A stretch of 64,000 nt of DNA, taken from assembly GCA_041659325.1 (NCBI GenBank), contig JBAZYN010000001.1, positions 494,819 through 558,818 of the forward strand. The letters run 5' to 3'. The position numbers and the translations under genes were made by a program. Below the pieces are notes generated by a model, which worked only from the letters and a program-made list of their open reading frames with translations, was not told the DNA's origin and did not search any database. The DNA is from Candidatus Shapirobacteria bacterium (GTDB lineage Bacteria; Patescibacteriota; Microgenomatia; UBA12405). Positions 10,243-63,983 of this stretch are shown here, one piece after another. The first letter of the stretch is position 1. The number at the start of each line of letters is the position of its first letter.

Positions 10243-11181
10243 CTATTTCCGATTTCCGCTATGATATTTCTCGTGTACTTCCCTCAATCTTGCATCTGTT
10301 ACGTGAGTATAAATTTGAGTAGTGGCAATGTTTTTGTGGCCAAGCAATTCCTGAACCGACCGAAGATCAGCCCCGCTTCTTAGAAGATCAGTCGCCATCG
10401 AGTGCCGTAAAGTGTGGGGGGTGGCACCAACCGGTATCTTTGCCTGACGCGTAAATCTTTTTACCATATACTGAATCGCCCTCGAAGACAGCCTGGCTTT
10501 TTCTTCACTGGCCGTAATGTCCTTTCTTTTCTTCAAATTTACAAATAGCGGCCTAAACTTATCGGTCCTGCTTCTCAAATATCTCTCTAAAATCACCTTG
10601 GCCGATTGGGAAATAAAAACCAGTCTGGATCTTCCACCCTTGCCGATTATCCCAAATTCCCTGGTCTTCAAATCAATCTGATCTCGATTCAAAGCCACCA
10701 ATTCCGATACCCGCAATCCGGCCGAAAACAGCAATTCCAAAATCGCCCTGTCCCGCAACCCGGCGGGCGTAGACAACAAAGGTTGGTTAAATAGTCTGGC
10801 TATCTGCTCTCCATTCAAAAACTTCAAAGAGTGTTCGCTGTTTTTTGGGACGTCAATTTTTTCCGGCTGCATCGATTTCAAGTCATTTTTAATTGCCCAC
10901 TTCAAAAAAGCCCGCAAAACTATCACATAATATCCTTGGGTCACACTTTTCAGGTCTCCGTTTAAGCCCGGTTGTCTTGCCAAAAATAATCGAAATTTTC
11001 TTACGCTTTCAGAATTAATATCCGACAGAGTTGGGTATTCAATTTTTAGCTCCTCCCTAAAAAAGGCCTCCAGTTTCCCCAGGTAATGTTTATATTTCAC
11101 CACTGTCAGTCGCGAGCAATTTCTTTCAATTTCCAAATGTTCAATAAATCTCGTAAATAGCGTGATTAAATCATCATTCAT
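10243..11181 (-). CDS. xerC: tyrosine site-specific recombinase, XerC/XerD family
   Basis: C-terminal catalytic motifs [12 protein letters not shown] ... [15 protein letters not shown] (R-H-R-Y tetrad). Confidence 0.85.
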
Positions 11182-11410
11182 GACCTATCTTATCATAGCC
11201 AAGGGCATAAAAATCGATTCTAGGGCCTCTGGTGAGGCTATATATAACTTTTCCCTATTCTTAGGCCTTTTCCTACCGGTCCTCCCGATTTTTACCCTGA
11301 GGGGAGTCAATGTCCAATTTTATGCCTGACAAACCGGTTCGACCGACTGGGGCAACCGATAGGCGAAACGGGGTTATCTATTAACATTCAGTTGTCGCCA
11401 CATAACATTA

Positions 11411-11446
11411 TCTGAATAAATAATTCGTAATTCGTAATTGTTAATT
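11411..11446. repeat. tandem heptamer array (TAATTCG/TAATTGT/TAATTAT)
   Basis: Five consecutive 7-nt units; in the 680-bp intergenic region next to xer. Confidence 0.4.
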
Positions 11447-11821
11447 ATTAATTAAGTGACTCCTCCCCTCCACTTCCACTTCAGAGTACTTCGTGAAAGA
11501 TACATTCTACGAAGTTACAAATATGCCACCTACCCGCCGGGGTAGAATAAACAAATGTTTTACTCACTTCCCCATAATTTACTCTAATCATTTATTAATT
11601 CGAAATTGATAATTCTTAATTGGTTCAACCCTTCCCCTGGGCTACACCTGCCCCTCTCGTGATACATTGGCGTTTTGTAAGTTTTCCACACAGACTATAT
11701 CACTCTATATCACGGTAATTGTGAAAACTATAGGACATTATGTGAAAATTATAGGATATTATAGGACTATATATTATAGGTCTAGCACTTCCCTCCTCCC
11801 CTGCCAACCCCCTCACAAAAA

Positions 11822-11856
11822 AATTACCGATTACTGATTACAAATTACTAATTACA
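11822..11856. repeat. tandem heptamer array (GATTACT/GATTACA/AATTACT)
   Basis: 7-nt periodicity immediately 3' of the minus-strand membrane-protein gene. Confidence 0.4.
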
Positions 11857-11864
11857 AAATTTGA

Positions 11865-12671
11865 TTATCTCCACCTGGTCATCACAATAATTGCCAAAAA
11901 TATAGCCACTCCCACCCAGACGAATCCCATCCACGTCTTCCGAAACAGTCTCCCCCGAATATCGCCCTGCAACAACCCCGATATAATATAAATCACAGAC
12001 ACCAGGTACATCGACCCTCTAAAAATTCCCACTGGCCAAAACGAAAATATCATTCCCAATTGGCCCAAAATTAATCCGGGAGCCAAAACATAGGCCATCC
12101 GGTTTTTATCCTTGCCGTCATCAGGTAGCTCAATCGCAATTGCCCAAAATTGATACAAAAATAGCAAAGTCGACACCGCAAAGATCACCAGTCCGTTTAT
12201 CCAATAATCCCATCTGAAAGAAAATATGGTATCAAACAAAAAAAACGCCGCCAATAACAAGATTATCAAGCTAACCGTATACGCCGCCCGATACAAAGGT
12301 ACCGTTTTATAGCCTATTGCCACCAAAAATACATTTTCAACCAAAAAAATAATATAGCAAAGCCCCCCAAAAAATACACTCATCGCCAATGAACCGACAA
12401 ACGAAGCAGGCAATATGGCCGCAAACAAGCCAAAGCCAATAAACAGCGCCGACGGCAACAAAATTGCCATCAGTCTAAGATAAATGCTATCGGCAAATAT
12501 TATCCCCAATCCAAACCAAAAACAAAAAATAACCAAAAGCGTCCCTACAATTAATCCGTAATACCGCGATTCATAAGGTAGGGAAATAAACATAAAAAAA
12601 CCAACCGCCGATAAAATCGATGAGACCAGATACTTAAACCTTTTGGACATAGTCAAACCCGGTAAAAACAT
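11865..12671 (-). CDS. hypothetical polytopic membrane protein
   Basis: 268-aa ORF with about 7 hydrophobic helices; no motif recognised. Confidence 0.6.
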   Translation of the reverse strand: MFLPGLTMSKRFKYLVSSILSAVGFFMFISLPYESRYYGLIVGTLLVIFCFWFGLGIIFADSIYLRLMAILLPSALFIGFGLFAAILPASFVGSLAMSVFFGGLCYIIFLVENVFLVAIGYKTVPLYRAAYTVSLIILLLAAFFLFDTIFSFRWDYWINGLVIFAVSTLLFLYQFWAIAIELPDDGKDKNRMAYVLAPGLILGQLGMIFSFWPVGIFRGSMYLVSVIYIISGLLQGDIRGRLFRKTWMGFVWVGVAIFLAIIVMTRWR

Positions 12672-17950: not shown

Positions 17951-18014
17951 AATTACTAATTACAGATTACAGATTACTGATTACAGATTACTGATTACAG
18001 ATTACCAATTACCA
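17951..18014. repeat. tandem heptamer array (AATTACT AATTACAG ATTACAG ATTACTG ATTACAG ATTACTG ATTACAG ATTACCA ATTACCA)
   Basis: Nine 7-nt units immediately 3' of dnaB. Confidence 0.6.
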
Positions 18015-33614: not shown

Positions 33615-33646
33615 TTTATTTGAATTCTATAATTTCTAATTACAGA

Positions 33647-33672
33647 TTACTAATTACTGATTACAGTTTACC
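33647..33672. repeat. tandem heptamer array (TAATTACAG ATTACTA ATTACTG ATTACAG)
   Basis: Immediately 3' of recR. Confidence 0.5.
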
Positions 33673-33677
33673 AACTC

Positions 33678-39293: not shown

Positions 39294-40934
39294 CTAATAC
39301 AATTGCTCTAATTTATCTTTTAATGTTTGTTTAAACAAAGCTGTATCAATTCCGTTAACCTTACAGTTCCCGTCCATATCGGCCTGTAAGTAGCCACCGT
39401 CATCTACCTCGTCAATTCTGGTTGCGGCTGATTTCACATAAGAGTAATCAAGACCGTCAACCACCCCATCGGGTACTCCAACCGTCGCTCCGGTCACATC
39501 ACCCGGCATTACCGGATATCTCGAAAAATCATAAAGTGGTGTTGTGTCTGCATCATCGGTCAGAGCTAAATTACCCCATGTCGAAGCAAAATATTCAGAT
39601 TGGTTATCAATCCCATACTTCACCTGAAGATGCTTTGGTCCCTTAAAAAATACGGCTATTCCCTCATAATATGGGAAGTCCGTCAAAACTACTTGGCCTC
39701 CATAAACAACCCTCTCGCTTATTGACGTGTTCAGTACCGGTATCTGCCCGGGATATATCTTAATAGTCCCCTCCGGTGCCAAAACTGTCACCGTCACCGG
39801 CCAATTTACCGCACACATATTGCCCGCCAGTACATCCCTGTAAGAAATCATGTATTTCAAAATCGGCCAACCGGCTGTCATTGGTGGCGTCTCTGTCGGC
39901 AAAAGAGTGTTGGTTGGCCTTAACGTATTTGTCGGCCTCGGTGGCGTCTCTGTCGGCACATCGGCCAGTGGTGTTTCTGTGGGCATCAGGGTATTTGTTG
40001 GTTTTAGTGTATTCGTTGGTCTCACTGGCGTGTTAGTTGGGACGAGGGTATTGGTCGGTCTCAATGTATTCGTTGGCTTCACTGGTGTTTGTGTAGGCCT
40101 CAGCGTATTGGTGGGAATAAGCGTTCCTGTCGGTCTCAATGTATTCGTTGGTCTCACTGGTGTGTTAGTTGGGACGAGGGTATTGGTCGGTCTCAATGTA
40201 TTCGTTGGCTTCACTGGTGTTTGTGTAGGCCTCAGCGTATTGGTGGGAATAAGCGTTCCTGTCGGTCTCAATGTATTTGTTGGTTTTGGTGTAATAGTCG
40301 GGGTCACTTCCGACTGGCTGCCATCTTCAATCACATAACTCATCCCGGTAACTCTATCTATCGACATCGCCGTATCGGTAGTCGTTGAATTACCCGACAC
40401 AACCGATTTACTCTTATCAAGAGTTATCATCCCCGTCGTTGTCGATCCGCCCGCCGTAAACATCAATTTGGCCACATTTACCACTCCGGAGCTCAAATCC
40501 GCTTCCGGCTTGTTAGAAGTCACCGATAAATTAATACATCTATTAATCCCCGCAGGGTAATTGCTGCCACCAACCGCTACCATCATCGACAATGGCACCT
40601 CATTAAACGAGCTCGTTTCTTTATTTACAATTATCACTTTGTCCAAATCAGTCTCATCAACCGAAAGCTTAGTACTGTCATAACAAACCTGAGTGGTTAC
40701 CCCCACTACTTTCGCCTTTTCCGACCCACCCGTTACGTTCCCCGTTTCAACCCACAACTGCACTGGAAAAGCCTCATTCATTTTCAATACTCTGTTCTCG
40801 GGTAAAAGAAATAATTTTGATCCGGCAAAGTACGCCCCGCTTCTGGTATCCCTGCTCCTGCCGGTCAAAAACACTGCCCCGGCAAGAGCGATCAGCAAGA
40901 CCACCCCAAAAACAATGGTCCCTGCCTTTTTCAT
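39294..40934 (-). CDS. secreted protein: cohesin-like N-domain, Thr/Pro-rich tandem repeats, C-terminal type-I-like dockerin
   Basis: Signal peptide. PTNTLRPTGTLIPTNTLRPTQTPVKPTNTLRPTNTLVPTNTPVR repeated. Dockerin duplicated segment GVPDGVVDGLDYSYV ... ADMDGNCKVNGIDTALF. Confidence 0.7.
   Translation of the reverse strand: MKKAGTIVFGVVLLIALAGAVFLTGRSRDTRSGAYFAGSKLFLLPENRVLKMNEAFPVQLWVETGNVTGGSEKAKVVGVTTQVCYDSTKLSVDETDLDKVIIVNKETSSFNEVPLSMMVAVGGSNYPAGINRCINLSVTSNKPEADLSSGVVNVAKLMFTAGGSTTTGMITLDKSKSVVSGNSTTTDTAMSIDRVTGMSYVIEDGSQSEVTPTITPKPTNTLRPTGTLIPTNTLRPTQTPVKPTNTLRPTNTLVPTNTPVRPTNTLRPTGTLIPTNTLRPTQTPVKPTNTLRPTNTLVPTNTPVRPTNTLKPTNTLMPTETPLADVPTETPPRPTNTLRPTNTLLPTETPPMTAGWPILKYMISYRDVLAGNMCAVNWPVTVTVLAPEGTIKIYPGQIPVLNTSISERVVYGGQVVLTDFPYYEGIAVFFKGPKHLQVKYGIDNQSEYFASTWGNLALTDDADTTPLYDFSRYPVMPGDVTGATVGVPDGVVDGLDYSYVKSAATRIDEVDDGGYLQADMDGNCKVNGIDTALFKQTLKDKLEQLY
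40021..40284. repeat. near-perfect 132-bp tandem duplication inside the dockerin-protein CDS
   Basis: Unit beginning CTCACTGGCGTGTTAGTTGGGACGAGG recurs 132 bp later with only a few substitutions. Confidence 0.7.
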
Positions 40935-44590: not shown

Positions 44591-45967
44591 ATGGCTAACA
44601 AGAATTTAAACCTATTAAAAACCATTTTCCCTCTTGTCGCCCTGCCATTCATAATCCTGGCCATAAAAACGGTTTTAGATATCCGCAAAGGTGCTGCTGG
44701 TATCCCCGCCGCCATTATCATCGACACCCAAAGTCCTCAGGGTAATATCCCCTCTTCCCTATGGCAAAACATTTCTCAGGGTGGCGAAGAGCCTACCGAT
44801 ATGATTGCTCCTGTTTTATACCAAACCAAGCCCCTCCGGCTCCAACTGATACGAATCGACCACCTATTCGATTACTATCAGGTTTACGCCGGTCCCGGAA
44901 ACTACAACTTCGAAAAGCTCGATCGTATTATAAATAGTATCCTGTCAACCGGCGCCAAGCCGATGCTTTCCGTTTCCTACACCACTTCCTCTATGTCCAA
45001 AAACGGTCAAAACGCCGGCGAGCCATCAGACTGGAACCAATGGTACCAATTAGTCAAGGCCACCGCCAACCGTTATTCCCGGGAAAAAAATATCTCCGGT
45101 ATTTATTACGAAGTCTGGAACGAGCCCGACCTTTTTGGCGGTTGGCACTATGCCAAAAGCCCCGATTACTCCACCCTTTACGTTCAAACTGCCAGAGCAA
45201 TTGTCGACGGTGCCGGCAATTCCGATTACAAAATCGGCGGCCCGGCTACTACCGGCTTTTATGAAAACTGGATTAAATCCTTATTTAAAACGGCCACCGA
45301 AAATCGCCTCCGCCTCAATTTCATCTCCTGGCACAAATATTCCAAAAACATTATCGATTACGAAAAAGACTTTAATAACTTAAACAAAATTTTATCTGAC
45401 TTTCCTCAATATTTCGGCATTGAAAGGATTATCACCGAAACCGGCCCCTCTCCAGAAGCCGACGCCTGGTACGACAATAAGCTTTCCGGAATTCATCTTA
45501 TTTCCCTCTGTACTCAAATGGCCGGCAAAATCCACCGTCTTTTCCCATTTGAACTCGTCGACGGCCCCTCCCCAAGATCCCCAAACTCAACCGGTTGGGG
45601 TATAATCACTCACCACACCAACGGCTCTGTCCCAAAACCCCGCTATTATGCTCTCCAGTTCCTAAACCAACTCCAGGGCCAACGTTTATCCTCAACCGGT
45701 GATGGCAGTTGGGTTACTTCGCTTTCGGCCAAAAATGGCTCAATAATCTCCACCCTATTAGTAAACTACGACAGTTTAAATTTACATCCCGAAACCGTCC
45801 CGGTCACCTTCCGCGGCATTAGCCCCGGCAATTATCGGCTAGTTAGCACCATTTATATGGGCAAAGAAAATTCCAAAAATATAACCGTCCCCTCATTCAA
45901 TTACACCGAAAACGTCTACCTCGAGCCCAATTCTGCCATCATTCTCAAACTCACCCCGCTAAATTAA
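44591..45967 (+). CDS. membrane-anchored clan GH-A glycoside hydrolase (GH39/GH5-like)
   Basis: N-terminal TM. Acid/base box YYEVWNEPDLFGGW and nucleophile box ERIITETGPSP, typical of clan GH-A (beta/alpha)8 hydrolases. Confidence 0.7.
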   Translation: MANKNLNLLKTIFPLVALPFIILAIKTVLDIRKGAAGIPAAIIIDTQSPQGNIPSSLWQNISQGGEEPTDMIAPVLYQTKPLRLQLIRIDHLFDYYQVYAGPGNYNFEKLDRIINSILSTGAKPMLSVSYTTSSMSKNGQNAGEPSDWNQWYQLVKATANRYSREKNISGIYYEVWNEPDLFGGWHYAKSPDYSTLYVQTARAIVDGAGNSDYKIGGPATTGFYENWIKSLFKTATENRLRLNFISWHKYSKNIIDYEKDFNNLNKILSDFPQYFGIERIITETGPSPEADAWYDNKLSGIHLISLCTQMAGKIHRLFPFELVDGPSPRSPNSTGWGIITHHTNGSVPKPRYYALQFLNQLQGQRLSSTGDGSWVTSLSAKNGSIISTLLVNYDSLNLHPETVPVTFRGISPGNYRLVSTIYMGKENSKNITVPSFNYTENVYLEPNSAIILKLTPLN

Positions 45968-45968
45968 G

Positions 45969-46108
45969 CGTCATTGCGATCCGCCAACTGGCGGAGTGGC
46001 AATCCCTGCCTGCCGGCAGGCAATCTTTACAGGATTAAAATAGTCAAGCTGTTTCAAGATTGCGGAGCCTGTCCCGAGAAACGAGGGATCGTTTCTCCTC
46101 GCAATGAC
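45969..46108. mobile_element. MITE-like element copy C (140 bp; TIR CGTCATTGCGA / TCGCAATGAC)
   Basis: Begins 2 nt after the GH stop codon. Internal CCGCCAACTGGCGG, GTGGCAATC and CCTGCCTGCCGGCAGGCAATCTTTAC modules. Confidence 0.55.
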
Positions 46109-46126: not shown

Positions 46127-46213
46127 AATTCGTAATTAGTAATTAGTAATTTTGGAATTTTATTACAGGTTACAGATTACTTATTACAGATTACCAATTA
46201 CAGGTTACCAATT
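46127..46213. repeat. tandem heptamer array (TAATTCG TAATTAG TAATTAG ... TTACAGG TTACAGA ... ATTACCA ATTACAGG TTACCAA)
   Basis: About 12 units directly 3' of rseP; overlaps its stop codon. Confidence 0.6.
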
Positions 46214-47265: not shown

Positions 47266-47298
47266 TGATCTGTAACCGGTAATCTGTAATCAGTAATT
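47266..47298. repeat. heptamer array in inverted orientation (CTGTAAC CGGTAAT CTGTAAT CAGTAAT)
   Basis: The only array in the opposite orientation; lies between the rseP start and the four-helix-bundle gene. Confidence 0.45.
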
Positions 47299-47399
47299 TA
47301 AAACTATTTTTGACTCTCAACAGATTTAATTAAACCATTAATTAATTTTTCAGCAACTTTACTTTGGACCCAAATTTTCTTGCAGGAATCAGAATCTAT

Positions 47400-47705
47400 C
47401 TATTTTAGATCTTTTGCTAACAAAATAAAATTTTGAACTTCCTTTAGCGATCCTCTTGCTTGAAAATAGAATTTAATTTTATCATTAAAATGATATCTAC
47501 CAAATCCCTCTGCTATATTAGCACTAATTGAGCTCGCAGCCCTCCTTAGCTGATCACAAACTCCATATTTCTCAACTCGAGGGAACTTATCCAATATTTT
47601 ATAAACAGAAATCACCAAGGCGTGTGATTCCTTCCATGAATTTAAATCATAAAAATCCAATATTCTCCCCATCTTCCTATCACATTCTACCAGTTTGATT
47701 ACCAA
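47400..47705 (-). CDS. four-helix-bundle protein (23S rRNA intervening-sequence protein family)
   Basis: KFPRVEKYGVCDQLRRAASSISANIAEGFGRY ... ARGSLKEVQNFILLAKDL is the signature of the TIGR02436-type family. Confidence 0.75.
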   Translation of the reverse strand: MVIKLVECDRKMGRILDFYDLNSWKESHALVISVYKILDKFPRVEKYGVCDQLRRAASSISANIAEGFGRYHFNDKIKFYFQARGSLKEVQNFILLAKDLK

Positions 47706-47770
47706 TTACAGGTTACCAATTACAGGTTACCAATTACAGGTTACCAATTACTGATTACTGATTACTGATT
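47697..47770. repeat. tandem heptamer array (GATTACC AATTACAGG TTACCAA TTACAGG ... ATTACTG ATTACTG ATTACTG)
   Basis: About 10 units between frr (3' end) and the four-helix-bundle gene start. Confidence 0.65.
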
Positions 47771-48341: not shown

Positions 48342-48379
48342 AATTACCAGTTACAGATTACAGATTACAGGTTACCAAT
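48342..48379. repeat. tandem heptamer array (AATTACC AGTTACAG ATTACAG ATTACAGG TTACCAA)
   Basis: Directly 3' of tsf. Confidence 0.55.
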
Positions 48380-48861: not shown

Positions 48862-48897
48862 CAATTACAGATTACTGATTACAGATTACTGATTACC
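48862..48897. repeat. tandem heptamer array (AATTACAG ATTACTG ATTACAG ATTACTG ATTACCA)
   Basis: Directly 3' of rpsB. Confidence 0.55.
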
Positions 48898-48900
48898 AAC

Positions 48901-50010: not shown

Positions 50011-50602
50011 GGATTTTCCTTGTAGAGACACCCCGCGGGGTGTCTCAATACAAAAATAAAAAAAAGGTGAATTGAAAAAAACAACAACCCAGGAAAACAC
50101 AAAAAACAAAAACAAAACAAAAAAAATAAAAAAACGTAACCCCATGGTTACTAACAAAGGGGGCATTCCCCTTTGCTTTTTCTTTTTTCTTTTTTTTCTT
50201 ACCATCCCTCGGGGTGGGCCATAGAAGACAGCGATGTCCTCTGATCTTTTTCGGCCCACCCCGAGAACCCCTTACACCGGGGCTACGACTGGCGTGTGAA
50301 AGGGCCGCCGCAATTGGGGTATGCCTTCACGCACCCACTCCTCAGACGGTTGCACTGCGAGCAGAAACTCGACTTGTTACCCACCACCAGCAGAATCAGA
50401 AAAGACAAAAGACGTTCCACGTCGCCTCCTTTGGGCAGTCATAAAAAACCCATGGAACCCCACGGTGAAAACAACGCGACACGCTATTTTTTTAAAAATT
50501 AAGAACCTAACTCTCACACAATCATATTCGCTTCTCCTCTCTAAATAGAATCAACCAATCCACCAAAAGATGAACTCGTTGATCCCATTTAAAAAGGGTT
50601 TA

Positions 50603-50650
50603 ACTACAGATTACAAGTTACAGGTTACCAATTACTGATTACCAATTACC
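50603..50650. repeat. tandem heptamer array (CTACAG ATTACAAG TTACAGG TTACCAA TTACTGA TTACCAA TTACC)
   Basis: Lies inside the ORF-poor 1.8-kb region. Confidence 0.55.
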
Positions 50651-51595
50651 AAAATTTTTTCCTGGGTTGTTAACGAACAGGAACGTTTAAACGACATTTG
50701 TCGTTTATTACGTTCAGGACAGGAACAAAATCATCTCAAAACCGCATTGGTTCCTAATAATTTTGTTACGAAAAACAATCCGATTATATCACACTATACT
50801 AGTCCTTGTCCCTGGGGACACTATTCCCCACAAAACCTTCTTCCCTAGGTCCATATCGCTTCAACCATCGCCCCAACTTGGCCGTCCTCTTTAACCCTTC
50901 GGCTCTTTCCTCTGGACTTTCCCTGGCAACAACTACAACTGCCGGTGGTATCTCTTCCGCCACTGTTACCATAACTTCCCTTGCTTTTGCCCCCAATCCG
51001 GGCATTGGCATCTGAATCGTCAGGGCCTCCAACGTTTTTCCCATTAACCTATTTTAATCCATATTTAAAAAATAAAAACAACAAGACAACTCAAAACACC
51101 AAAAAACAAACAAAGTGGAGTGACCACCATCGTGCATGGTCACCCCACCCGTTGTCTTCGCCCTCGGCGATCTTTGGGACTTACCCAATGACCGCCGATA
51201 TTAGCGACAGAAAACCCCAGCTAGCCAACGCGGTGGGGATCAGGACAAACAAAAGGCAAAACCCCCCACCCTCCGAAGCAGGCTGGTCGTCGTTCTTCTG
51301 CGTAGCCGCTAGCTGAAAGAAGGACAATGCCGCACAAAGTGCGAGCAAAGAGCTAGCCGCAACCCACCTGATTTTCATCTTCATGCGATTTTCCTTTCTG
51401 GCCAATGGCCATGAGTTGTCTTGTTGTCAACGAACCAGTCTTCAGCAAACCGCCGCTTACAGATATAAATCTTTGGCAATCTGCTAAAACTATATCTTAT
51501 AATATCACATATCATCGAAAAATACAACAATATATTTACATAACAGACAAAATCATAAACCCTGTTTCCGTCCAATATTAGTGTAAAATCAAACT

Positions 51596-53893: not shown

Positions 53894-54000
53894 CGTCATT
53901 ACGATCCGCCAACTGGCGGAGTGGCAATCATTACAAGACTTAGTTAGTCAAGTTGTTTCAGAATTACTTCTCCCGACGTAACGTCGGGATCGCAATGACG
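53894..54000. mobile_element. MITE-like element copy E (107 bp; TIR CGTCATTACGATC / GATCGCAATGACG)
   Basis: Fills the convergent gap between the ATPase gene and topA. Contains CCGCCAACTGGCGGAGTGGCAATC and a CCCGACGTAACGTCGGG hairpin. Confidence 0.55.
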
Positions 54001-54004
54001 GGTT

Positions 54005-56044
54005 TTAAGGTTTCTTCCACCCTGCCCACTTACACTCCGGATATTTCGAGCAGCCATAAAATTTCTTGCCGCTCCGGGTTCTCTTTATTACCACCGGCGC
54101 CCCACACGTCGGACAGTCAAATCCGGCCACTTCCTGATACTGTTTAGTATACCTACACTCCGGAAACCGGCTACAAGAAATAAACTTCCCGAATTTCCCC
54201 AGTCTAATAACCAGCTCCCCCTCCTTACACTCCGGACATTTTTCCCCCAATTTTTCCGTCTCCACCTTCACTCTCTCTGCCCCGGCTTCGGCTATTTTTA
54301 CATCCTTCTCAAATCTGTTCCAAAATGTTTTCATCATTTTTTTCCAATCCAATTTTCCCGCCGCAATTTTGTCCAAATTACCCTCCATGTCAGCCGTAAA
54401 CGGCAACGACAAAACTTCAGAAAAATTCCTTACCAAAAATTCATTGGCCGCCTTGCCCAATGCTGTTGGGATAAATTTCCCCTCATCCTTTTCCACATAC
54501 TGTCGAATCTGAATAGTCGAGATAATCGGCGCATAAGTACTTGGTCGCCCGATTCCCTGTTTTTCCAGGCTCGATACCAAACTTGCCTCGGTATATCTTG
54601 GCGGTGGGTTAGTTTCCGACTCCTCAAACCATATCTTTGTAGCCGAAATCATCTCTCCTTCTTTTAAAGCCGGCAATATCTGATCTTCAAATTTCTCTCC
54701 ATTAATCTTCAAAAACCCATCAAAAATCATCCTTACTCCTTTTGACTGAAACAGACCGCCTCCGTCTCGCAGATTAACCACCGTACTTCCTGTTATCGCC
54801 GCTGCCCCCTGTGTTGCCACTGCCCGTTTCCAAATCATTTGGTATAGTCTATTCTCCCTCGGGTCTGCATCCGCCAGTTCTGTCCTATTTACGTCTGTCG
54901 GCCTGATAGCCTCATGCGCCTCCTGGGCATTCTTGGCCGTATTTTTATAGTACCTGATCTTTGCCGATATATACTTTTCTCCGTATGTTTTGCCGATATA
55001 TTTTCTGAAATCATTTATCGTTTTTTCGGCAATATAGACCGAATCAGTCCGATGGTATGTTATAAAGCCTCTTTCAAACAATCTTTGCGCCACACTCATT
55101 GTCGTTTTCCCTGGCCATCCAAACCTCCTGGCCGCTGCCTGTTGAAGTTTTGATGTTGTAAAAGCCGGCAGCGGCGTTCTGTTAATTTCTTTCTCTGTTA
55201 CTTTCTCGACCACCATTTGGTTTGATAGGTCATTCACGAATTTCGTCACCTTCTGCCTATCCTCAAAAATCGACTTGGTAAAAGAATAAACCCCGTCAAA
55301 TAGTTTGATCTTTTCCGTTTTAAACGCCGACTTTTCTTCCACCTTTATCAGATCAGCGTCAAACTTTTCCCTCCCCTTTTTCAATTCCGCCAATACCTTA
55401 AAAAACACTTCTTTTTTAAATGCCTCAATCTCTTTTTCCCTTTCGCACACCAGTCTCACCGCCACCGACTGCACCCGCCCACCGGACAAACCTCTCCTTA
55501 CTTTTCTCCACAAAACCGGAGATAAAGTATAACCCACCACCCGGTCAAGAATCCTTCTCCCCTGCTGCGCGTTTACCAAATCCATATCCACCGCCCGTGC
55601 TTTTCCCATCGCATCAGAAATTGCGTCCTTAGTAATTTCATGAAATGTTATTCTGCTGATATCAAGCTTCTTTCCCACTTTCAAACTTTCAGACTTTCCC
55701 ACTTTCAGACTTTTAGACTTTAAGACTTTTGACTCATCTGGATGCGTCAGCAACCACTCCACATGCCACGATATTGCTTCCCCTTCCCGATCCGGATCTG
55801 TCGCCAACAATACTCTTTTAACTCTGGCCGCAGTTCTAATAAGGTCCTCTACCACATTTTTTTTCTTGGGATCGATCTTGTAATCCGGCTCAAAACCGTG
55901 TTTAATATCCACCGACATCTTATTCCCCGGCAAATCTCTCAAATGACCCACGGTCGCAATCACCTCAAAATCTTTTCCCAAATATTTCCCTATAGTTTTC
56001 GCTTTCGTCGGCGATTCCACTACCAATAAACTCTTGTCTCCCAT
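54005..56044 (-). CDS. topA: DNA topoisomerase I with C-terminal zinc ribbons
   Basis: Toprim N-terminus LLVVESPTKAKTIGKYLG ... GHLRDL, active-site Tyr region, several C4 ribbons (CPECKEG ... CSRFPEC; CPTCGA ... CSKYPEC). Carries an in-frame SLKVGK low-complexity repeat insertion. Confidence 0.95.
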   Translation of the reverse strand: MGDKSLLVVESPTKAKTIGKYLGKDFEVIATVGHLRDLPGNKMSVDIKHGFEPDYKIDPKKKNVVEDLIRTAARVKRVLLATDPDREGEAISWHVEWLLTHPDESKVLKSKSLKVGKSESLKVGKKLDISRITFHEITKDAISDAMGKARAVDMDLVNAQQGRRILDRVVGYTLSPVLWRKVRRGLSGGRVQSVAVRLVCEREKEIEAFKKEVFFKVLAELKKGREKFDADLIKVEEKSAFKTEKIKLFDGVYSFTKSIFEDRQKVTKFVNDLSNQMVVEKVTEKEINRTPLPAFTTSKLQQAAARRFGWPGKTTMSVAQRLFERGFITYHRTDSVYIAEKTINDFRKYIGKTYGEKYISAKIRYYKNTAKNAQEAHEAIRPTDVNRTELADADPRENRLYQMIWKRAVATQGAAAITGSTVVNLRDGGGLFQSKGVRMIFDGFLKINGEKFEDQILPALKEGEMISATKIWFEESETNPPPRYTEASLVSSLEKQGIGRPSTYAPIISTIQIRQYVEKDEGKFIPTALGKAANEFLVRNFSEVLSLPFTADMEGNLDKIAAGKLDWKKMMKTFWNRFEKDVKIAEAGAERVKVETEKLGEKCPECKEGELVIRLGKFGKFISCSRFPECRYTKQYQEVAGFDCPTCGAPVVIKRTRSGKKFYGCSKYPECKWAGWKKP

Positions 56045-56057
56045 GTTTATAAAATTT

Positions 56058-56178
56058 ATTTACTAAATTACTAATTACAGACTTGCCTGCCGGTAGGCAG
56101 GTTACCAGTTACTGATTACAGATTACCAGTTACCGGTTACAGATTACCATTTACCAATTACTGATTACCAGTTACAAG
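56058..56178. repeat. long tandem heptamer array with embedded palindrome GACTTGCCTGCCGGTAGGCAGGTTAC
   Basis: About 15 heptamer units (ATTACTA ATTACAG ... TTACTGA TTACAGA TTACCAG ...) between the 133-aa gene and the topA start. Confidence 0.6.
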
Positions 56179-56626: not shown

Positions 56627-57295
56627 CTACAATCCTTCTAAATCTTCAATCCCCGTTACAATATTCGCCCCGTTTTTAATCAGATAATTTGGCGCTGCCG
56701 AATTGGTATCTGTCATTCTCCCTGGCACTGCCCATACCTCCCGCCCCTGCTCCGCCGCCAGCCTTGCTGTTACCAAAGTTCCGCTTCTTTTCGACCCCTC
56801 AATTACCACTACCCCCCTCGAGATTCCGGAAATTATTCTGTTTCTTGCCAAAAATTTTTCCGGGGCCGGCAATACTCCGTTTGCATATTCTGAAACTATC
56901 AACCCTCCACTAGCCAAAATCAATTCATAAAGCCACTTATTCGACCTCGGGCTAACCACGTCCACTCCCGAAGCCAAAACCGCAATTGTTTTCCCGCCCC
57001 TCTCAGTACAAACCCTTTGCACTTGAGCATCTACCCCAAAGGCCATCCCCGACACTACCACAATCCCGGTTCTGACCAGTTCCGGAACTAGCTTTTCCAC
57101 CACTTCTTTCCCGTATTCACTGATATTTCTGCTCCCCACCACCGCCAGGGCTTTCTTTTCTCTTAGCAACTCCGTATTCCCAAGACAATACAGTCTATCG
57201 GGGCAATCCGGTATCTGCCGCAGTAAATACGGAAAACTGTCACTATCTTTACAAATTACTTTTATTTCCACTCCTAAATCATATACTAACGTCAT
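56627..57295 (-). CDS. dprA: DNA processing protein DprA (Rossmann-fold core only)
   Basis: ALAVVGSRNISEYG ... VVSGMAFGVDAQ ... IISGISRGVVVIEGSKRSGTL DprA core motifs. The ATG start lies inside the CGTCATTGCG head of MITE copy F. Confidence 0.85.
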   Translation of the reverse strand: MTLVYDLGVEIKVICKDSDSFPYLLRQIPDCPDRLYCLGNTELLREKKALAVVGSRNISEYGKEVVEKLVPELVRTGIVVVSGMAFGVDAQVQRVCTERGGKTIAVLASGVDVVSPRSNKWLYELILASGGLIVSEYANGVLPAPEKFLARNRIISGISRGVVVIEGSKRSGTLVTARLAAEQGREVWAVPGRMTDTNSAAPNYLIKNGANIVTGIEDLEGL

Positions 57296-57362
57296 TGCGA
57301 TCCGCCAACTGGCGGAGTGGCAATCTTTTCTAGTCCTCCCTTCTTCAAGGGAGGGAATTAAA
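57290..57362. repeat. MITE-like family, partial copy F (CGTCATTGCGATCCGCCAACTGGCGGAGTGGCAATC plus a CCTCCC ... GGGAGG hairpin)
   Basis: The first 36 nt match copies C and E almost exactly; no 3' TIR found. Confidence 0.4.
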
Positions 57363-57385: not shown

Positions 57386-57457
57386 ATTACAGATTACAGA
57401 TTACAGACCTGCCTGCCGGTTTACCCGCCGTGGTGGGCAGGCAGGTTACAAATTACA
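57386..57457. repeat. tandem heptamer array with embedded palindrome CCTGCCTGCCGG ... GGGCAGGCAGG
   Basis: AATTACAG ATTACAG ATTACAG then palindrome then TTACAAA TTACATT; overlaps the PBP2 stop codon. Confidence 0.6.
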
Positions 57458-59102
57458 TTTTTATCCCCGGTGTTGGTGTCCCATATCTTGGCACCACCGT
57501 TTCCGGTTCCTCAAACCATTCTTTCAAAATATCCCCCACAATCGGCGCCGCCACATCAGACCCTTCCCCGCCTCTCTCCACCACAACCGTAATAGATATT
57601 TGTGGCTCATCAACTGGTGCAAAAGCAGTCAGCCAGGCATGTGTTTCTTTACTCCCGTCACCCACTTCCGCCGTCCCTGTCTTACAGGCAATCTCAGTCT
57701 TAAAGTTAAAAAGCGGCCACGCTGTCCCTCCACTTTTACAGGCTTCTTTCATTCCCCCAACTACTAACTTTATCGTCTCTTTCTTTATCCCCAAACTTTC
57801 GCACTCCGCTTTCCCGTTCCGAATCAAGGTCATTTTACACTTCACCCCCCCATTGGCTACCACATTCGTCATCTGGTTCACCTGAAGAGGTGTCACACTC
57901 AAATCTCCCTGTCCGATGGCCAAATGATAAGTATTTCCCAAAAACCACTTCTCCCCCTTATTTTCAATTTTCCATTTTTCATCCGGTAAAATCCCGCTAA
58001 TTTCCCCCGGTAACTCCACCCCCGCTTTTTTTCCAAAACCAAATTTATCCGCCCAGGTCACAATTCTCTCCAGTCCCATTCTCTCCCCCAATCTATAAAA
58101 AAATATATCATTAGATCTCTTCAGGGCTTTTACAATATTCACCATCCCATCTGTCCCGCCGCTTTTGTTCCACAGCCAATTCGAATAGGAATATTCACCC
58201 ACCTTTATCACCCCGGTATCCTCGATCAGAGTATTGCCATCAATTACACCCGTTTCCAGTCCGCCGGTTGCCATCGTCAGTTTAAACACCGAACCCGGAT
58301 GATATCTTGCCGCCACCGCCCTGTTCAGAAGCGGCAAATCTACCTTATCGTCCAGATAATTATTAATCGCTACATTATCCTGCTGAAATGAAAACACATT
58401 GGGGTCAAACCCGGGACTGGAAACCATGCTGACTATTTCTCCGTTTTGGGGGTTGCTGATTATTACCACCGCCTTTTTCCCTTCAAGCATTTTATAAATC
58501 TTTTCCTGCCAGTAAGCATCCAAACTTAAGGTAATTTTTTCCCCTATTTCCGGCTCCTGTCTCCCTAGCTCTCTGATATATTTCCCCTTTGCATCTACTT
58601 CTATCAACCGTTTACCGTCCACCCCCCGAAGATCACAATCAAAATACTCTTCAGTTCCTCCCCGTCCCAACACACTTCCAAATCCCAACCGCTCTTTGCA
58701 CTTATCCGTATTTATTTCCTTTTCATTTACTTGCCCCACATATCCGGTAATAAAAGACATCGATTCCCCATATGGGTATTGCCGCTTTAACTCATATGCC
58801 AAATCTTTACCCTCAAACCGATAGCCCAAAAAGTCCCCCTGGTCATCATAAACCCTGTTTCCGTCAACCATTTTAAAGTATTGATAAAAACTTTTCGCCA
58901 CCACCCTGTCTTTCCGGTCGACTATCAATCCCCTTCCGGCCGGGATTACCGTTTCAAAAATTCGGTTTTCCCTGGATAAACTATAGTAATATTTGTGTCT
59001 GATAATCGACAAATTGCAAAATCCGACAAACAATATCCCAAAGCTCAAAAACAGACCTACTTTCAAACCCCAATACCGCAAATTACCCTCGGTTTCCATC
59101 AT
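57453..59102 (-). CDS. mrdA: penicillin-binding protein 2-type peptidoglycan D,D-transpeptidase
   Basis: N-terminal TM, dimerisation domain, transpeptidase motifs SVFK, SNW-like, KTGTAEV. Directly downstream of mreB, which favours mrdA over ftsI. Confidence 0.8.
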   Translation of the reverse strand: MMETEGNLRYWGLKVGLFLSFGILFVGFCNLSIIRHKYYYSLSRENRIFETVIPAGRGLIVDRKDRVVAKSFYQYFKMVDGNRVYDDQGDFLGYRFEGKDLAYELKRQYPYGESMSFITGYVGQVNEKEINTDKCKERLGFGSVLGRGGTEEYFDCDLRGVDGKRLIEVDAKGKYIRELGRQEPEIGEKITLSLDAYWQEKIYKMLEGKKAVVIISNPQNGEIVSMVSSPGFDPNVFSFQQDNVAINNYLDDKVDLPLLNRAVAARYHPGSVFKLTMATGGLETGVIDGNTLIEDTGVIKVGEYSYSNWLWNKSGGTDGMVNIVKALKRSNDIFFYRLGERMGLERIVTWADKFGFGKKAGVELPGEISGILPDEKWKIENKGEKWFLGNTYHLAIGQGDLSVTPLQVNQMTNVVANGGVKCKMTLIRNGKAECESLGIKKETIKLVVGGMKEACKSGGTAWPLFNFKTEIACKTGTAEVGDGSKETHAWLTAFAPVDEPQISITVVVERGGEGSDVAAPIVGDILKEWFEEPETVVPRYGTPTPGIKM

Positions 59103-60246: not shown

Positions 60247-62217
60247 ATGAAATTAATACCCAGGGCAATTATTTTTTGCTACCTCCTGCTTTTCTTTTTC
60301 ACCCCCCTGATTTTCACCTCCTTTAATTCAGAGCTGTTCGAATTACCCAAAACTTACTTTGTTTTTGCCATTACTATACTTGTTCTTTCCCTTCATTTAA
60401 TCAATCATTTTGTCAACGCCACTCCCCTCTATCGCCGCAGCTTCCTGGACATCCCTTTTGCACTATTTCTACTCTCCCAAGCCATTTCCACCATTATTTC
60501 CATCGATCCCCACACCTCTCTTTGGGGCTATTATTCCCGAATGAACGGCGGGCTTTTATCCACCGTCTCATATCTCACCCTTTTCTGGGTTTTCAATGTT
60601 TACCTCACCGATTCTCTAAAAAACAAGCTAGTCCACACTGCCCTGATTTCCGGATTAATAGTCTCTGTGTACGGAATTTTGCAGCATTTCGGTATCGACA
60701 AACACCTCTGGATTCAGGATGTCCAAAACCGGGTTTTCTCCACCCTCGGCCAACCAAATTGGTTGGCCGCCTATCTTTGTATCCTTATCCCTTTTGCCAT
60801 TTTGAAATTTCTTAATTCCAAATCAAAGTTACAGTTTACTGTTTACAGTTTACTGATTACCGTTTTTTATCTGTGTCTCCTTTTTACCAAATCCAAATCA
60901 GGTATTCTTGCCGCCATCATCACCATCTCTCTCTTTCTTATTATCTATTCCCAAAAAACAAAAAAAATTCTATTACCGATTATCGTTTCCGGCTTAGTGA
61001 TTATTTTTCTTTTTACCGTCAACAATCCCATTCAAAATCGCCTTTCCCCCTCCTCCCCCCAAACTCCCTCAGCCCTGTCAGAGGTTACCGCCGACACTAA
61101 TATTACTGCCTCAGAAGATATCAGAAAAATTGTCTGGCAAGGTGCCTTTGACCTCTGGAAACGTTTCCCCGTCCTTGGCACCGGAGTAGAAACTTTTGCC
61201 TATTCTTATTACTGGACCAGGCCGACCTCTCATAATCTCACCTCCGAGTGGGACTTTCTCTACAACAAAGCCCACAACGAATATTTAAACTACCTCGCTA
61301 CTACCGGCGCTCTAGGCTTACTTGCCTACCTCCTCATCATTTTCACCGTTCTCAAAAAATTAATCCCTAATCACCAATCCGATATAGAAAACCTGGCTAT
61401 CCTCTCCGGCTTCTCCGCCATTTTGATCACCAATGCCGCCGGTTTTACCGTCGTTGTCTCATCTTTATTTTTCTTCCTTCTTCCCGCCCTCATCAAAATC
61501 CCGCCACAGGTTATTACTCCAAAAGCCAAACTAAAAGATAATTTTTTTACCATTCCCCTTGTCATTTTTACCCTAATCTGTGGCAGCTATCTTTTCAACA
61601 CCATTACCGCCTATTATCTAGCCGATATCGCCTTCGCCCAATCCGAAAATACCGATGCCGACCAAGAGCCTCAAACTGCCTATGACTACATCGGCGCCGC
61701 CATTAAATTTCGACCCACCGAGCCCTTGTACCAAAGCAAGATGTCTACCATCGCCGTCAAACTCGCTTCCATCGACAAACAATCGCAAGACAACAACATC
61801 AAGATCGCCCTGGCCGCTTCTGACAAATCCGTTGCCGATTCTCCGGCCAATGTTAACTTTTGGAAAGAACGAGCCCAAATGTTTATTTACCTGTCCACCA
61901 TCGATTCAAAATATTTTACCGACTCCATCGAGTCCCTTCTCTCCGCCTCCCGTCTTGCTCCCACCGATGCCAAAATTTTTTATCTTATCGGTCGTTTTTA
62001 TCTTACTGCCGGCCAAACTCCAGAGGCCCTTTTGTACTTTCAAAAAGCCATCGACCAAAAACCAAACTATGATTTTGCCTATTTTGATATGGGGAAAATT
62101 TATTTGGATCAGAAAGACTATCAAAAAGCCAAAGAATCATTTGAAACCACCCTAAAAATCGCCCCAAAAAACACCGACGCCCAAAATTACCTTGATCAAA
62201 TCAACCTCCTTGACTAG
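60247..62217 (+). CDS. O-antigen ligase (Wzy_C) family membrane protein with C-terminal TPR repeats
   Basis: About 10 TM helices. Periplasmic loop WQGAFDLWKRFPVLGTGVETF ... NKAHNEYLNYL matches Wzy_C. C-terminal TPR-like helices. Contains an in-frame heptamer stretch at 60828-60865. Confidence 0.7.
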   Translation: MKLIPRAIIFCYLLLFFFTPLIFTSFNSELFELPKTYFVFAITILVLSLHLINHFVNATPLYRRSFLDIPFALFLLSQAISTIISIDPHTSLWGYYSRMNGGLLSTVSYLTLFWVFNVYLTDSLKNKLVHTALISGLIVSVYGILQHFGIDKHLWIQDVQNRVFSTLGQPNWLAAYLCILIPFAILKFLNSKSKLQFTVYSLLITVFYLCLLFTKSKSGILAAIITISLFLIIYSQKTKKILLPIIVSGLVIIFLFTVNNPIQNRLSPSSPQTPSALSEVTADTNITASEDIRKIVWQGAFDLWKRFPVLGTGVETFAYSYYWTRPTSHNLTSEWDFLYNKAHNEYLNYLATTGALGLLAYLLIIFTVLKKLIPNHQSDIENLAILSGFSAILITNAAGFTVVVSSLFFFLLPALIKIPPQVITPKAKLKDNFFTIPLVIFTLICGSYLFNTITAYYLADIAFAQSENTDADQEPQTAYDYIGAAIKFRPTEPLYQSKMSTIAVKLASIDKQSQDNNIKIALAASDKSVADSPANVNFWKERAQMFIYLSTIDSKYFTDSIESLLSASRLAPTDAKIFYLIGRFYLTAGQTPEALLYFQKAIDQKPNYDFAYFDMGKIYLDQKDYQKAKESFETTLKIAPKNTDAQNYLDQINLLD

Positions 62218-63116: not shown

Positions 63117-63983
63117 ATGAAAATAGTATTCTTTGGTTCATCGGAGTATTCACTACTCATTCTAAAGTGTCTTCAAAAAATCCAGGGTTTTGACGTTTCC
63201 GCAGTAGTTACCAAGCCGGACAAAGCCACCGGCAGGGACAAGCAAATCACCCCCAATCCCGTCTCCCGGTTTTGTGCAGACAATCATCTCCCCCTACTTC
63301 AGCCCGAAGCTTTTGACGACCAATTTTCCGATACCTTTCGGTCGCTTAAACCCGATTTGGGCCTATGTGTCGCCTATGGTCCGCCCTACTTCTCCCAAGA
63401 GTTGATTGACATTCCCAAGTACAAAATTGTCAACATCCACCCCTCTCCTTTACCAAAATACCGGGGAGCAACACCCGGACCATGGCAAATAATTAACAAC
63501 GAAACCAAAAGCGCTGTCACCTTTTTCCAAATCGATATTCTCCCCGATCACGGCCCTGTCATTACCCAAATCCCCTTCACTATTTCACCAGACGAGACAT
63601 CCTCTTCGTTTTACCAAAAAGCCTTCAACCTCGCCGCTGATAGTCTGGAAACTGTTCTCACCTCCTATATCCAAAATCCTCAATCACTGTTGCCTCAAGA
63701 CCACTCAAAAAAATCTTATTTCCCCAAACTCTCAAAAGAATCCGCAAAAATAGACTGGTCTTGGAACATCAACAAAATAGAGCACTTCATCCGTGCCCTC
63801 GACCCCTGGCCTATCGCCTGGACCGAGGTAACCAATTCCAAAAACCAGATTTTAAAAATGAAAATCTTTTCCTCGACTTTTGACTTTCGACTTTCGACTT
63901 TAAGACTCGGTACAGTCCAGATAGAAGGCAAAAAACCGATCCCCTGGGCCGAGGTAAAAGACTACTACCGGATTATCAAATAG
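63117..63983 (+). CDS. fmt: methionyl-tRNA formyltransferase
   Basis: MKIVFFGSSEYS; formyltransferase core NIHPSPLPKYRGATP. Divergent from def. C-terminal domain carries an in-frame GACTTT(C/T) repeat insertion. Confidence 0.9.
   Translation: MKIVFFGSSEYSLLILKCLQKIQGFDVSAVVTKPDKATGRDKQITPNPVSRFCADNHLPLLQPEAFDDQFSDTFRSLKPDLGLCVAYGPPYFSQELIDIPKYKIVNIHPSPLPKYRGATPGPWQIINNETKSAVTFFQIDILPDHGPVITQIPFTISPDETSSSFYQKAFNLAADSLETVLTSYIQNPQSLLPQDHSKKSYFPKLSKESAKIDWSWNINKIEHFIRALDPWPIAWTEVTNSKNQILKMKIFSSTFDFRLSTLRLGTVQIEGKKPIPWAEVKDYYRIIK

Follow-up and report, generated by a model that had tools for sequence, protein, structure and literature searches.

A tandem array of 7-nt units at 47698-47767 of a 64-kb stretch of DNA (hereafter the window, i.e., the whole stretch analyzed) from a metagenome-assembled genome (MAG) of Candidatus Shapirobacteria, a lineage of the Candidate Phyla Radiation (CPR), had been flagged in an original prediction as one of a series of such arrays lying near gene 3' ends. 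We found that this array is not a stand-alone element but one arm of an inverted pair of arrays bracketing a gene of the PF05635 family ("23S rRNA-intervening sequence protein", IVP). The anatomy of the resulting cassette is that of a 23S rRNA intervening sequence (IVS), placed inside a run of protein-coding genes. The array-IVP-array arrangement, usually with inverted arrays, recurs in Patescibacteria, Bacteroidota, Planctomycetota and Cyanobacteriota, as well as in a 23S rRNA gene of Azospirillum; one-sided cases are observed in Chloroflexota and Nitrospirota. The array class itself is known, with CPR as a new host, and the unexpected result is the cassette, that is, PF05635 genes bracketed by heptamer arrays that are usually inverted.

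The PF05635 cassette between frr and rseP

The cassette occupies the spacer between frr and rseP, two minus-strand genes, and comprises three elements (window coordinates are in plus-strand numbering throughout):

47698-47767, minus strand: the flagged array and 5' arm of the cassette, 10 units (CAGTAAT three times, TGGTAAC CTGTAAT as a pair three times, TGGTAAT), starting 3 nt past the frr stop codon and ending 25 nt short of the PF05635 gene's ATG.
47307-47672, minus strand: PF05635 "23S rRNA-intervening sequence protein" gene, four-helix-bundle and Avd-like, inserted between frr and rseP.
47270-47297, plus strand: 3' arm of the cassette, an inverted array whose plus strand reads GTAAY (units CTGTAAC CGGTAAT CTGTAAT CAGTAAT), placed 6 nt past the PF05635 reading frame and 11 nt ahead of the rseP ATG.

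The open reading frame (ORF) at 47400-47672 matches PF05635 in Pfam with an E-value of 7.7e-28 (97 bits vs. a cut-off of 33.8). An in-frame TAG at 47400-47402 replaces a Tyr codon, and both profile and tblastn homology run on in frame to 47307; in total, the PF05635 homology is of full length (about 121 codons, with homologues of 120-127 aa). Judging from the sequence, the truncation is recent, and this copy either specifies a shortened product or is a pseudogene of recent origin. In some relatives without the IVP ORF (e.g., L126, L139 and L141), the frr stop is separated from the rseP ATG by 0-2 nt.

The two flanking arrays pair with each other in both the minimum free energy (MFE) and the centroid fold of the 521-nt RNA (z -3.2), giving a predicted stem of about 27 bp with the IVP ORF in its loop. 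The cassette shares with ORF-bearing 23S rRNA intervening sequences a small four-helix-bundle ORF between complementary arms of a long stem, the arms being assessed in silico. It differs from them in location, which is between the protein-coding genes frr and rseP (no rRNA was detected in the window with Rfam), and RNase III processing would have to be assumed for it by analogy. No remnants of IVP genes were found in the other spacers of the window.

A second relevant comparison is with the diversity-generating retroelements (DGRs). Their accessory protein, bAvd, is a pentamer of basic character and binds both nucleic acid and the reverse transcriptase (RT). The IVP is a homologous small four-helix-bundle protein, and PF22296 bAvd matches are found among IVP homologues; a relation of Avd to PF05635 has been published (PMC10053308). 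The DGR anatomy is not seen here, however: the immediate neighbors of the IVP gene are frr and rseP, no RT and no template or variable repeats lie beside it (the rest of the window was not searched for RT), and the repeats that are present are heptamer arrays.

Heptamer arrays beside other PF05635 genes

The association was assessed in a pooled sample of 20 PF05635 genes chosen without regard to repeats and drawn from CPR, Bacteroidota, cyanobacterial plasmids and the Azospirillum 23S rRNA gene, with an automatic criterion of a period-7 array within 60 nt of the gene. Arrays were found on both sides of 10 genes, on one side of 7 and on neither side of 3, vs. 3, 84 and 594, respectively, for 681 control ORFs (Fisher p = 7e-15 for both sides and 2e-12 for any side). 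The PF05635 genes in loci of relatives and of array matches, found by protein and then profile search and checked with Pfam, are as follows:

L006, Planctomycetaceae: inverted arrays on both sides of the PF05635 gene.
L036, Bacteroidales: inverted arrays on both sides.
L127 and L198, Shapirobacteria relatives: inverted arrays on both sides.
L064, Anaerolinea: array on one side, the other side lying beyond the end of the locus.
L067, Chitinophaga: array on one side, the other side lying beyond the end of the locus.
L007, Nitrospiraceae: array on one side, the other side lying beyond the end of the locus.
L195, Shapirobacteria relative: arrays 2 nt away on one side and 522 nt away on the other.
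L153, Shapirobacteria relative: one weak array by the gene.
L012, Bacteroidales: no array near the gene, one side being a contig end.
L170, Shapirobacteria relative: no array by the gene.

In a blind test, four homologues (P0139, P0189, P0216 and P0226) were picked from the protein search with their DNA unseen, and all four turned out to have inverted arrays on both sides. P0139, from another Patescibacteria MAG, lies between rpoD and a tRNA gene with the flanks CGGTAAT CAGTAAC TGGTAAT CGGTAAT, ATG ... ATTACTA ATTACTA ATTACCG ATTACTG ATTACGA, and the arms of this locus (L209) pair in MFE and centroid folds (z -4.65). P0189, an intact homologue, is 74% identical to the window protein and occupies the same place between frr and rseP, with TGGTAAA/TGGTAAT arms of the YNGTAAY family found in the window, and P0216 (Chitinophagaceae by source naming) and P0226, both at the same position before proS, have RCTGGTT/AACCAGY arms.

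A tblastn search of PLSDB plasmids with the IVP returned 24 records, nearly all of them cyanobacterial, and adjacent period-7 arrays, most of them inverted, were read by eye in 9-10 of the 10 records fetched. The units differ between hosts, being of TCAGGAG type in plasmids of Trichormus variabilis and Nostoc punctiforme, GGGAAAA/TTTTCCC in a Geminocystis plasmid and GGTGACA/TGTCACC in a plasmid of Anabaena sp. 90. Four-helix-bundle genes with such flanking arrays lie, e.g., at NC_007412.1 60378-60743 and NC_010632.1 15234-15599. The single 23S IVS examined, that of Azospirillum lipoferum AZO_p2 (L226), has its PF05635 gene inside the 23S rRNA gene (Rfam LSU positions 877-1664) between arms made of period-7 repeats. 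Scans of viral sequences with single IVP proteins gave one ambiguous locus and otherwise nothing.

Closely related IVP genes, some of them orthologous, have the same unit family in their flanks. Indeed, YNGTAAY units surround IVP genes that are 61-74% identical in the window, L209 and L217, with L209 at a different genomic site, and in four cases (the window, L127, L195 and L217) the arrays standing alone (solo arrays) are built of the unit family that also flanks the local IVP gene. Many IVP-bearing contigs are only 1-3 kb long. The literature searched contained no link of PF05635 or "four helix bundle proteins" with heptamer arrays, an absence limited to that literature.

Two further arrangements were noted in passing. 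PF05635 genes with long flanking heptamer arrays lie between cas genes (cas6/cas4, cas10/cmr3) in L223 (Pseudanabaena galeata pPg_01), L228 (Picosynechococcus PCC 7003) and L229 (Anabaena sp. 90 pANA02). Direct and inverted TTAC-core arrays about 30-35 nt apart occur between genes in L061, L101 (a Saccharibacteria MAG) and L111, and these look like ORF-less hairpins similar to the 46130/46162 pair of the window.

The array family of the window and its turnover in relatives

The tandem heptamers that the original prediction had read at a number of places in the window were all recovered by Tandem Repeats Finder (TRF), as arrays of period 7, 14 and 21. A motif-free period-7 detector (requiring that 15 or more of 21 positions match the base found 7 nt away) gave 14 arrays vs. 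0-1 in shuffled copies, the window total consisting of one unrelated heptamer array and 13 arrays that belong to a single family (minus-strand consensus YNGTAAY). A regular expression for at least 3 NTTACNN units gave 11 arrays on the plus strand and 2 on the minus strand, and the pattern TTACHRRTTACHRRTTACHRRTTAC (TTACHRR three times, then TTAC) has 30 matches in the window vs. 0 in 100 shuffles. The excess is specific to the heptamer: under equivalent settings, the 14 arrays of period 7 compare with 1 of period 8 and 0 of periods 9-12, and in relatives 45 arrays of period 7 compare with 7, 3, 0, 1 and 7 for neighboring periods. Arrays are head-to-tail, range from 3 to 11 units (TRF, regular expression), are intergenic in 14 of the 15 family members and fill roughly 600 of the 6,376 intergenic nt, or about a tenth. 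Tandem 7-nt units, an excess of period 7, a dispersed and mostly intergenic placement and copy-number change by whole units are the marks of heptanucleotide simple sequence repeats; the contiguity of units, with no spacers between them (TRF, regular expression), sets these arrays apart from CRISPR arrays. Besides the two cassette arms, the family members are:

11421-11455, plus strand: inverted array (TCGTAAT TCGTAAT TGTTAAT TATTAAT).
11594-11622: degenerate inverted copy of the heptamer family.
11823-11857, minus strand: direct array, 5 units, 7 nt past the stop of gene 11865-12671; pairs with 11421-11455 in the predicted fold.
17952-18014, minus strand: solo direct array, 9 units, 2 nt past the dnaB stop and upstream of tRNA-Leu.
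33639-33673, minus strand: solo direct array, 5 units, between the recR stop (4 nt away) and the next ATG (24 nt away); an independent assembly has the identical array.
46130-46150, plus strand: inverted array (TCGTAAT TAGTAAT TAGTAAT), 11 nt from 46162-46210.
46162-46210, minus strand: direct array, 7 units, 1 nt past the rseP stop, in a convergent spacer.
48343-48377, minus strand: solo direct array, 5 units, 2 nt past the tsf stop, followed by TTTGGTAAAAT, 6 nt and the frr ATG.
48864-48898, minus strand: solo direct array, 5 units, between rpsB (stop codon 2 nt away) and tsf (ATG 25 nt away).
50610-50651, minus strand: solo direct array, 6 units, within a 539-nt spacer.
56060-56177, minus strand: direct array upstream of topA, ending 14 nt short of its ATG; 11 units are followed by a 20-nt GC palindrome (56082-56101), which interrupts a unit, and by 2-3 further units.
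57386-57458, minus strand: direct array supplying the stop codon of PBP2, in which 2 units precede and 3 follow a 38-nt palindrome (57408-57445).
60828-60862, minus strand: array-like 35-nt patch in a plus-strand Wzy_C/TPR gene, the TTAC strand being the coding strand.

Within the 94 units counted in motif-free array bounds, the GTAA core is conserved and variation is limited to positions 1, 2 and 7; the commonest units on the minus strand are CTGTAAT (22), CAGTAAT (12), TGGTAAT (11) and TGGTAAC (7), and some arrays show higher-order periods of 14 and 21 nt. Most arrays do share one orientation, as had been claimed, but this orientation is not strict and the exception is not a single one. The array 11421-11455, formerly read as a TAATTCG variant, and the array 46130-46150 are members of the YNGTAAY family on the other strand (TCGTAAT), so that the count becomes 11 direct vs. 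3-4 inverted arrays. Each of the three clear inverted arrays lies downstream, in the minus-strand reading, of a direct array (11823/11421, 46162/46130 and 47698/47270), at a distance of 12-400 nt. Single arrays fold no better than shuffles (z -1.2 to +1.5), which agrees with the earlier statement that they form no hairpin and are no classical terminators; the three inverted pairs are predicted to base-pair, and 46130-46150 with 46162-46210 constitutes an ORF-less predicted hairpin (z -2.0). Terminator-like sites occur at chance level with none at an array, and consensus scans for promoters and terminators around arrays likewise gave counts at the level of chance.

The names given earlier to the flanking genes dnaB, recR, rseP, frr, tsf, rpsB and PBP2 hold up in NCBIfam, which also supports topA; the TopA protein (54005-56044) is 100% identical to one from a Candidatus Shapirobacteria MAG. 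Their supposed location at gene 3' ends is half of the picture. Arrays start 1-7 nt past the stops of dnaB, recR, rseP, frr, tsf, rpsB and the 11865 gene, with the PBP2 stop inside the first unit, and they equally lie upstream of the next gene, ending 11-25 nt before its ATG (rseP, frr, tsf, topA and the 33614 gene). They fill the whole spacer, from the stop codon up to the -10 box or ATG that follows. Among spacers of at least 30 nt, arrays are present in 10 of 20 minus-minus and 1 of 4 convergent spacers, and in none of the 4 plus-plus or 6 divergent ones. In the GTAAY sense, arrays appear to shun coding sequence because that strand has TAA in all three frames. A universal rule of stops in all three frames was considered and rejected, as the AATTACG and CAATTTT arrays of relatives have no stop on the sense strand. 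A Shine-Dalgarno-like motif precedes only 8 of the 55 window genes. Many genes have a TGnTAnAAT box 6-9 nt before the ATG (e.g., TTTGGTATAAT before frr in most relatives, L126-L205), which suggests widespread leaderless mRNAs in the lineage. Birth of arrays from the extended -10 box TGGTAnAAT of leaderless promoters was also entertained: the first unit TGGTAAY and the TAGATNN arrays that run into TAGATAAT boxes in relatives are suggestive of it, but it is not demonstrable, and the divergent, promoter-only spacers have arrays in 0 of 6 cases.

The embedded palindrome reported earlier is confirmed: the GC-rich CCTGCCTGCCGGCAGGCAGG occurs at 46005-46024, 56082-56101 and 57408-57445, the third copy with a 16-nt center. 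Two copies interrupt arrays, each splitting a unit precisely between its A6 and its T7, and since the orthologous arrays of relative L122 lack it, the palindromes were inserted into pre-existing arrays. A 36-nt palindromic element, GATTGCCACTCCGCCAGTTGGCGGATCGCAATGACG, resembling a miniature inverted-repeat transposable element, is present at 45969-46004, 53894-53929 and 57290-57325 (minus strand) with 0-1 mismatch, two of its three copies lying within about 60-120 nt of heptamer arrays.

The patch at 60828-60862 encodes LQFTVYSLLIT. Orthologues are of equal length here but show no repeat-like DNA, so that the patch has the look of a templated replacement, not an insertion, and such replacement of non-repeat DNA at constant length suggests copying between loci besides local slippage.

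Synteny with relatives is conserved, and the comparison of copy number yields steps of slippage size, as had been anticipated. In L122 (TopA 83% identical), arrays are present at both spacers shared with the window: its topA is preceded by 5 units, without the palindrome, vs. 13-14 units plus the 20-nt palindrome in the window, and at the PBP2 stop 6 uninterrupted units vs. 5 plus the 38-nt palindrome. L121 (TopA 82%) and L123/L124 (68%) have no arrays at the topA and PBP2 spacers, topA starting 7-8 nt after a -10-like box or overlapping the upstream gene. Among 80 loci of Frr relatives (Frr 69-89% identical), period-7 arrays are common but patchy, with the units AATTACG, TAGATNN, TCTAATN, TAGTAAT and CAATTTT; in many cases they occupy the rpsB-tsf and frr-downstream spacers, as in the window, and some of them run in the opposite sense. 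By these sequence comparisons, arrays evolve fast, differing between close relatives by whole 7-nt units in length and being absent or built of other units in more distant ones.

At a larger scale, four TTAC-core units were found in at least 120 stretches (one genome per species). Among the matches listed, most hosts belong to Cyanobacteria, Bacteroidota, Acidobacteriota, Chloroflexota or Planctomycetota, and two other CPR lineages (Saccharibacteria and Yanofskybacteria) are also represented. A general orientation rule across phyla does not emerge, arrays being mixed relative to flanking ORFs (opposite/opposite 32, same/same 24 among the matches listed). The GTAA-sense orientation of stop-adjacent arrays (33 vs. 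17 among the same matches) is a biased count, because that strand ends any ORF by construction.

Some other repeats and spacers of the window also deserve mention. A different heptamer array, four units of GACTTTY, lies at 63869-63907, and similar AAAGTYN arrays are found in relatives L131, L151 and L198. In-frame tandem repeats within coding sequence include 57- and 132-nt repeats (39969-40284) in gene 39294-40934 and, near the topA start (55670-55729), an 8- and 24-nt repeat. The 539-nt spacer 50260-50798 may hold an unannotated RNA containing the array 50610-50651, with a promoter-like site of good quality at 50812-50783 (minus strand) and a hairpin resembling a terminator at 50465-50450. 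The 683-nt spacer 11182-11864 adjoins a tyrosine-recombinase gene (10243-11181) and contains CCTATAAT three times and TTTTCACA twice; in the predicted fold, the arrays at its two ends base-pair and enclose about 370 nt of cargo that lacks IVP homology. Rfam, applied at the gathering threshold to the whole window and at a permissive threshold to these two long array-bearing spacers, detected tRNA-Leu only.

Interpretation and alternatives

The original prediction knew of no described system with this architecture. For the arrays, such systems do exist. The STRR heptanucleotide repeats of heterocystous cyanobacteria were reportedly described by Mazel et al. in 1990. A wider class of "long simple sequence repeats" (LSSR) with a preference for heptamers is attributed to Mrazek et al. 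(2007) in a later summary (PMC4679880). Like STRR and LSSR, the window arrays are dispersed, mostly intergenic 7-nt tandem arrays in which related units are mixed, unit sets are lineage-specific and copy number changes in 7-nt steps. Unlike STRR, they reside in a CPR host with about 6.4 kb of intergenic DNA per 64 kb, their unit is YNGTAAY and not STRR1-3 of heterocystous cyanobacteria, and they form three inverted pairs in the window, one of them around a PF05635 gene, for which we found no STRR report in the literature searched. Nor did that literature contain a report of heptamer arrays in CPR.

Direct TAACTGA repeats of marine Beggiatoaceae, Cyanobacteria and Bacteroidetes (MacGregor, 2015; PMC4679880) are similar in being intergenic near start codons in a setting of few Shine-Dalgarno sites, in their patchy distribution over phyla, in mixing related heptamers and in that the closest relatives have shorter spacers without repeats. 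They differ in that no rotation of YNGTAAY equals TAACTGA and in that they end about 1 nt before the start codon, whereas the window arrays abut the upstream stop and end 11-25 nt before the ATG; four-helix-bundle or IVS proteins go unmentioned in that paper. In Nostoc PCC 7120, heptamer repeats near promoters or start codons of recF and recO (bioRxiv 10.1101/2022.06.06.494920) resemble the window arrays as contiguous heptamers 30-100 nt from the start codons of many genes, with an unidentified binding partner postulated there. The units are different, and the Nostoc study includes reporter data, whereas the window arrays were analyzed as sequence.

On balance, we consider it rather probable, although far from certain, that the window arrays are of the STRR/LSSR kind, that the flagged one is an arm of an IVS-like PF05635 cassette, that the solo arrays were derived or spread from such arms and that slippage maintains them. 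Under this reading, the arrays would be repeat arms of IVS-like cassettes co-transcribed with host genes, and the cassette would be cut from the transcript at the stem, probably by a double-stranded RNA nuclease such as RNase III, as in classical IVSs. Derivatives or spread copies of cassette arms would then be seen in the two inverted pairs that enclose no ORF (46130/46162 and 11421/11823) and in the solo arrays built of that unit family, and replication slippage would maintain and resize them all. Most solo copies are probably near-neutral spacer DNA. Some constraint or recognition specific to the sequence, and not pure drift, is indicated by variation confined to three unit positions, by TGGTAAY as the recurrent first unit at stops and by the conservation of the first units before topA.

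A number of observations weigh against this explanation. Most arrays are solo, and their relation to the cassette, including their derivation from it, is one that we infer. Arrays greatly outnumber IVP genes, with an IVP gene present within 8 kb in 6 of 120 array-selected loci. The IVP gene of the window itself has a premature stop, 2 of the 20 sampled IVP genes (L153 and L170) have no convincing arrays, and the flanks in Pseudanabaena (L223) are direct, not inverted, with 18 copies of AAAAGCT and 10 of AAAAGCC. The agreement of unit family with IVP clade could reflect common descent of gene and flanks, while the stems rest on energy models and cleavage by RNase III is assumed by analogy with 23S IVSs.

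The strongest competitor, which we nonetheless regard as unlikely, takes the arrays for plain slippage microsatellites with no tie to the IVP gene, arising and drifting wherever a spacer is unconstrained; cassettes would simply land in or near them, or long stems would tend to evolve into short-period repeats. It would accommodate the numerical excess of arrays over IVP genes, copy-number change in whole units, the different units of different lineages at the same spacer and the presence of arrays where spacers tolerate extra DNA (half of the 20 co-directional spacers of at least 30 nt). However, insertion into an existing direct array would leave direct flanks, and most two-sided cases are inverted; the same YNGTAAY family surrounds the 61-74% identical IVP genes of the window, L209 and L217, although L209 is at another site; and uniform drift would not give variation in the same 3 of 7 positions across independent loci.

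An improbable alternative, of a type proposed for the TAACTGA repeats (PMC4679880), is a cis-acting RNA signal, (YNGUAAY)n, read by an RNA-binding protein or the ribosome and separating cistrons, via translation termination and re-initiation or RNA processing, in a genome largely free of Shine-Dalgarno sites. The tight placement between stop and next ATG speaks for such a signal, as do an unstructured sense strand with UAA in all frames and the scarcity of Shine-Dalgarno-like motifs. So do the first units: TGGTAAY comes first after the stop in 6 of 11 direct arrays vs. 23% overall, and over the 58 nt that contain the first units before topA, the window and L122 share 96.6% identity, vs. 75-82% for coding sequence. 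On the other hand, the rpsB-tsf and frr-downstream spacers of relatives hold arrays of other units, even of opposite sense (with AATTACG as the sense-strand unit), arrays in other phyla show no uniform orientation with respect to genes, and in array-less relatives the genes abut or overlap, which implies that the element is dispensable.

Still less credible is a DNA-level, replication-strand-specific element or mutational product whose orientation follows the leading or lagging strand and not genes, notwithstanding the single orientation of 11 of the 14-15 arrays, a plus-strand GC skew that is negative over the entire window and the lack of arrays in plus-plus and divergent spacers. A single skew sign places the window on one replichore, where orientation relative to replication is inseparable from orientation relative to transcription; the numbers are small (0 of 4 vs. 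10 of 20), inverted pairs are a regular feature, and the inverted array 46130-46150 is sense-oriented for the convergent plus-strand gene 44591-45967. As for an assembly artefact of collapsed or chimeric repeats, raised as a possibility by the original prediction, its probability is negligible despite the tendency of short-read contigs to break at arrays (many IVP contigs are short, and the L206 contig starts inside the rpsB-tsf array): the arrays are real, having unique flanks, a 100% match across the recR and tsf-frr arrays in an independent Logan assembly of run SRR18595301, orthologous counterparts in a different sample (L122) and the same architecture in finished reference plasmids.

Along with the cassette reading favored here, the earlier idea of a polar cis element read by a protein gains a candidate reader, the PF05635/Avd-like protein. 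In a bolder version, to which we assign a low probability, heptamer arrays and PF05635/Avd-like proteins would form one system, in which each protein lineage recognizes, on RNA or DNA, a heptamer of its own with a 4-5-nt core recurring at 7-nt intervals, the gene travels as a cassette with inverted-array arms, and solo arrays are binding or processing sites or products of the activity. If true, this would explain the abundance of both features in the same patchy set of phyla, and the 35-year-old STRR repeats would gain a molecular partner.

Since 1990, heptanucleotide arrays have served to fingerprint cyanobacteria; to our knowledge, neither an origin nor a function is established for them, and stand-alone 23S-IVS or Avd-like proteins are uncharacterized. 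The analysis of the window shows that such arrays thrive in a streamlined CPR genome too, where they take up about a tenth of the intergenic DNA. Array-flanked PF05635 genes in several phyla and in a 23S rRNA gene link these two unexplained features in a testable way. For genome annotation, the finding means that IVS-like cassettes are present in protein-coding operons and cas loci besides rRNA genes, and that contigs tend to break there.

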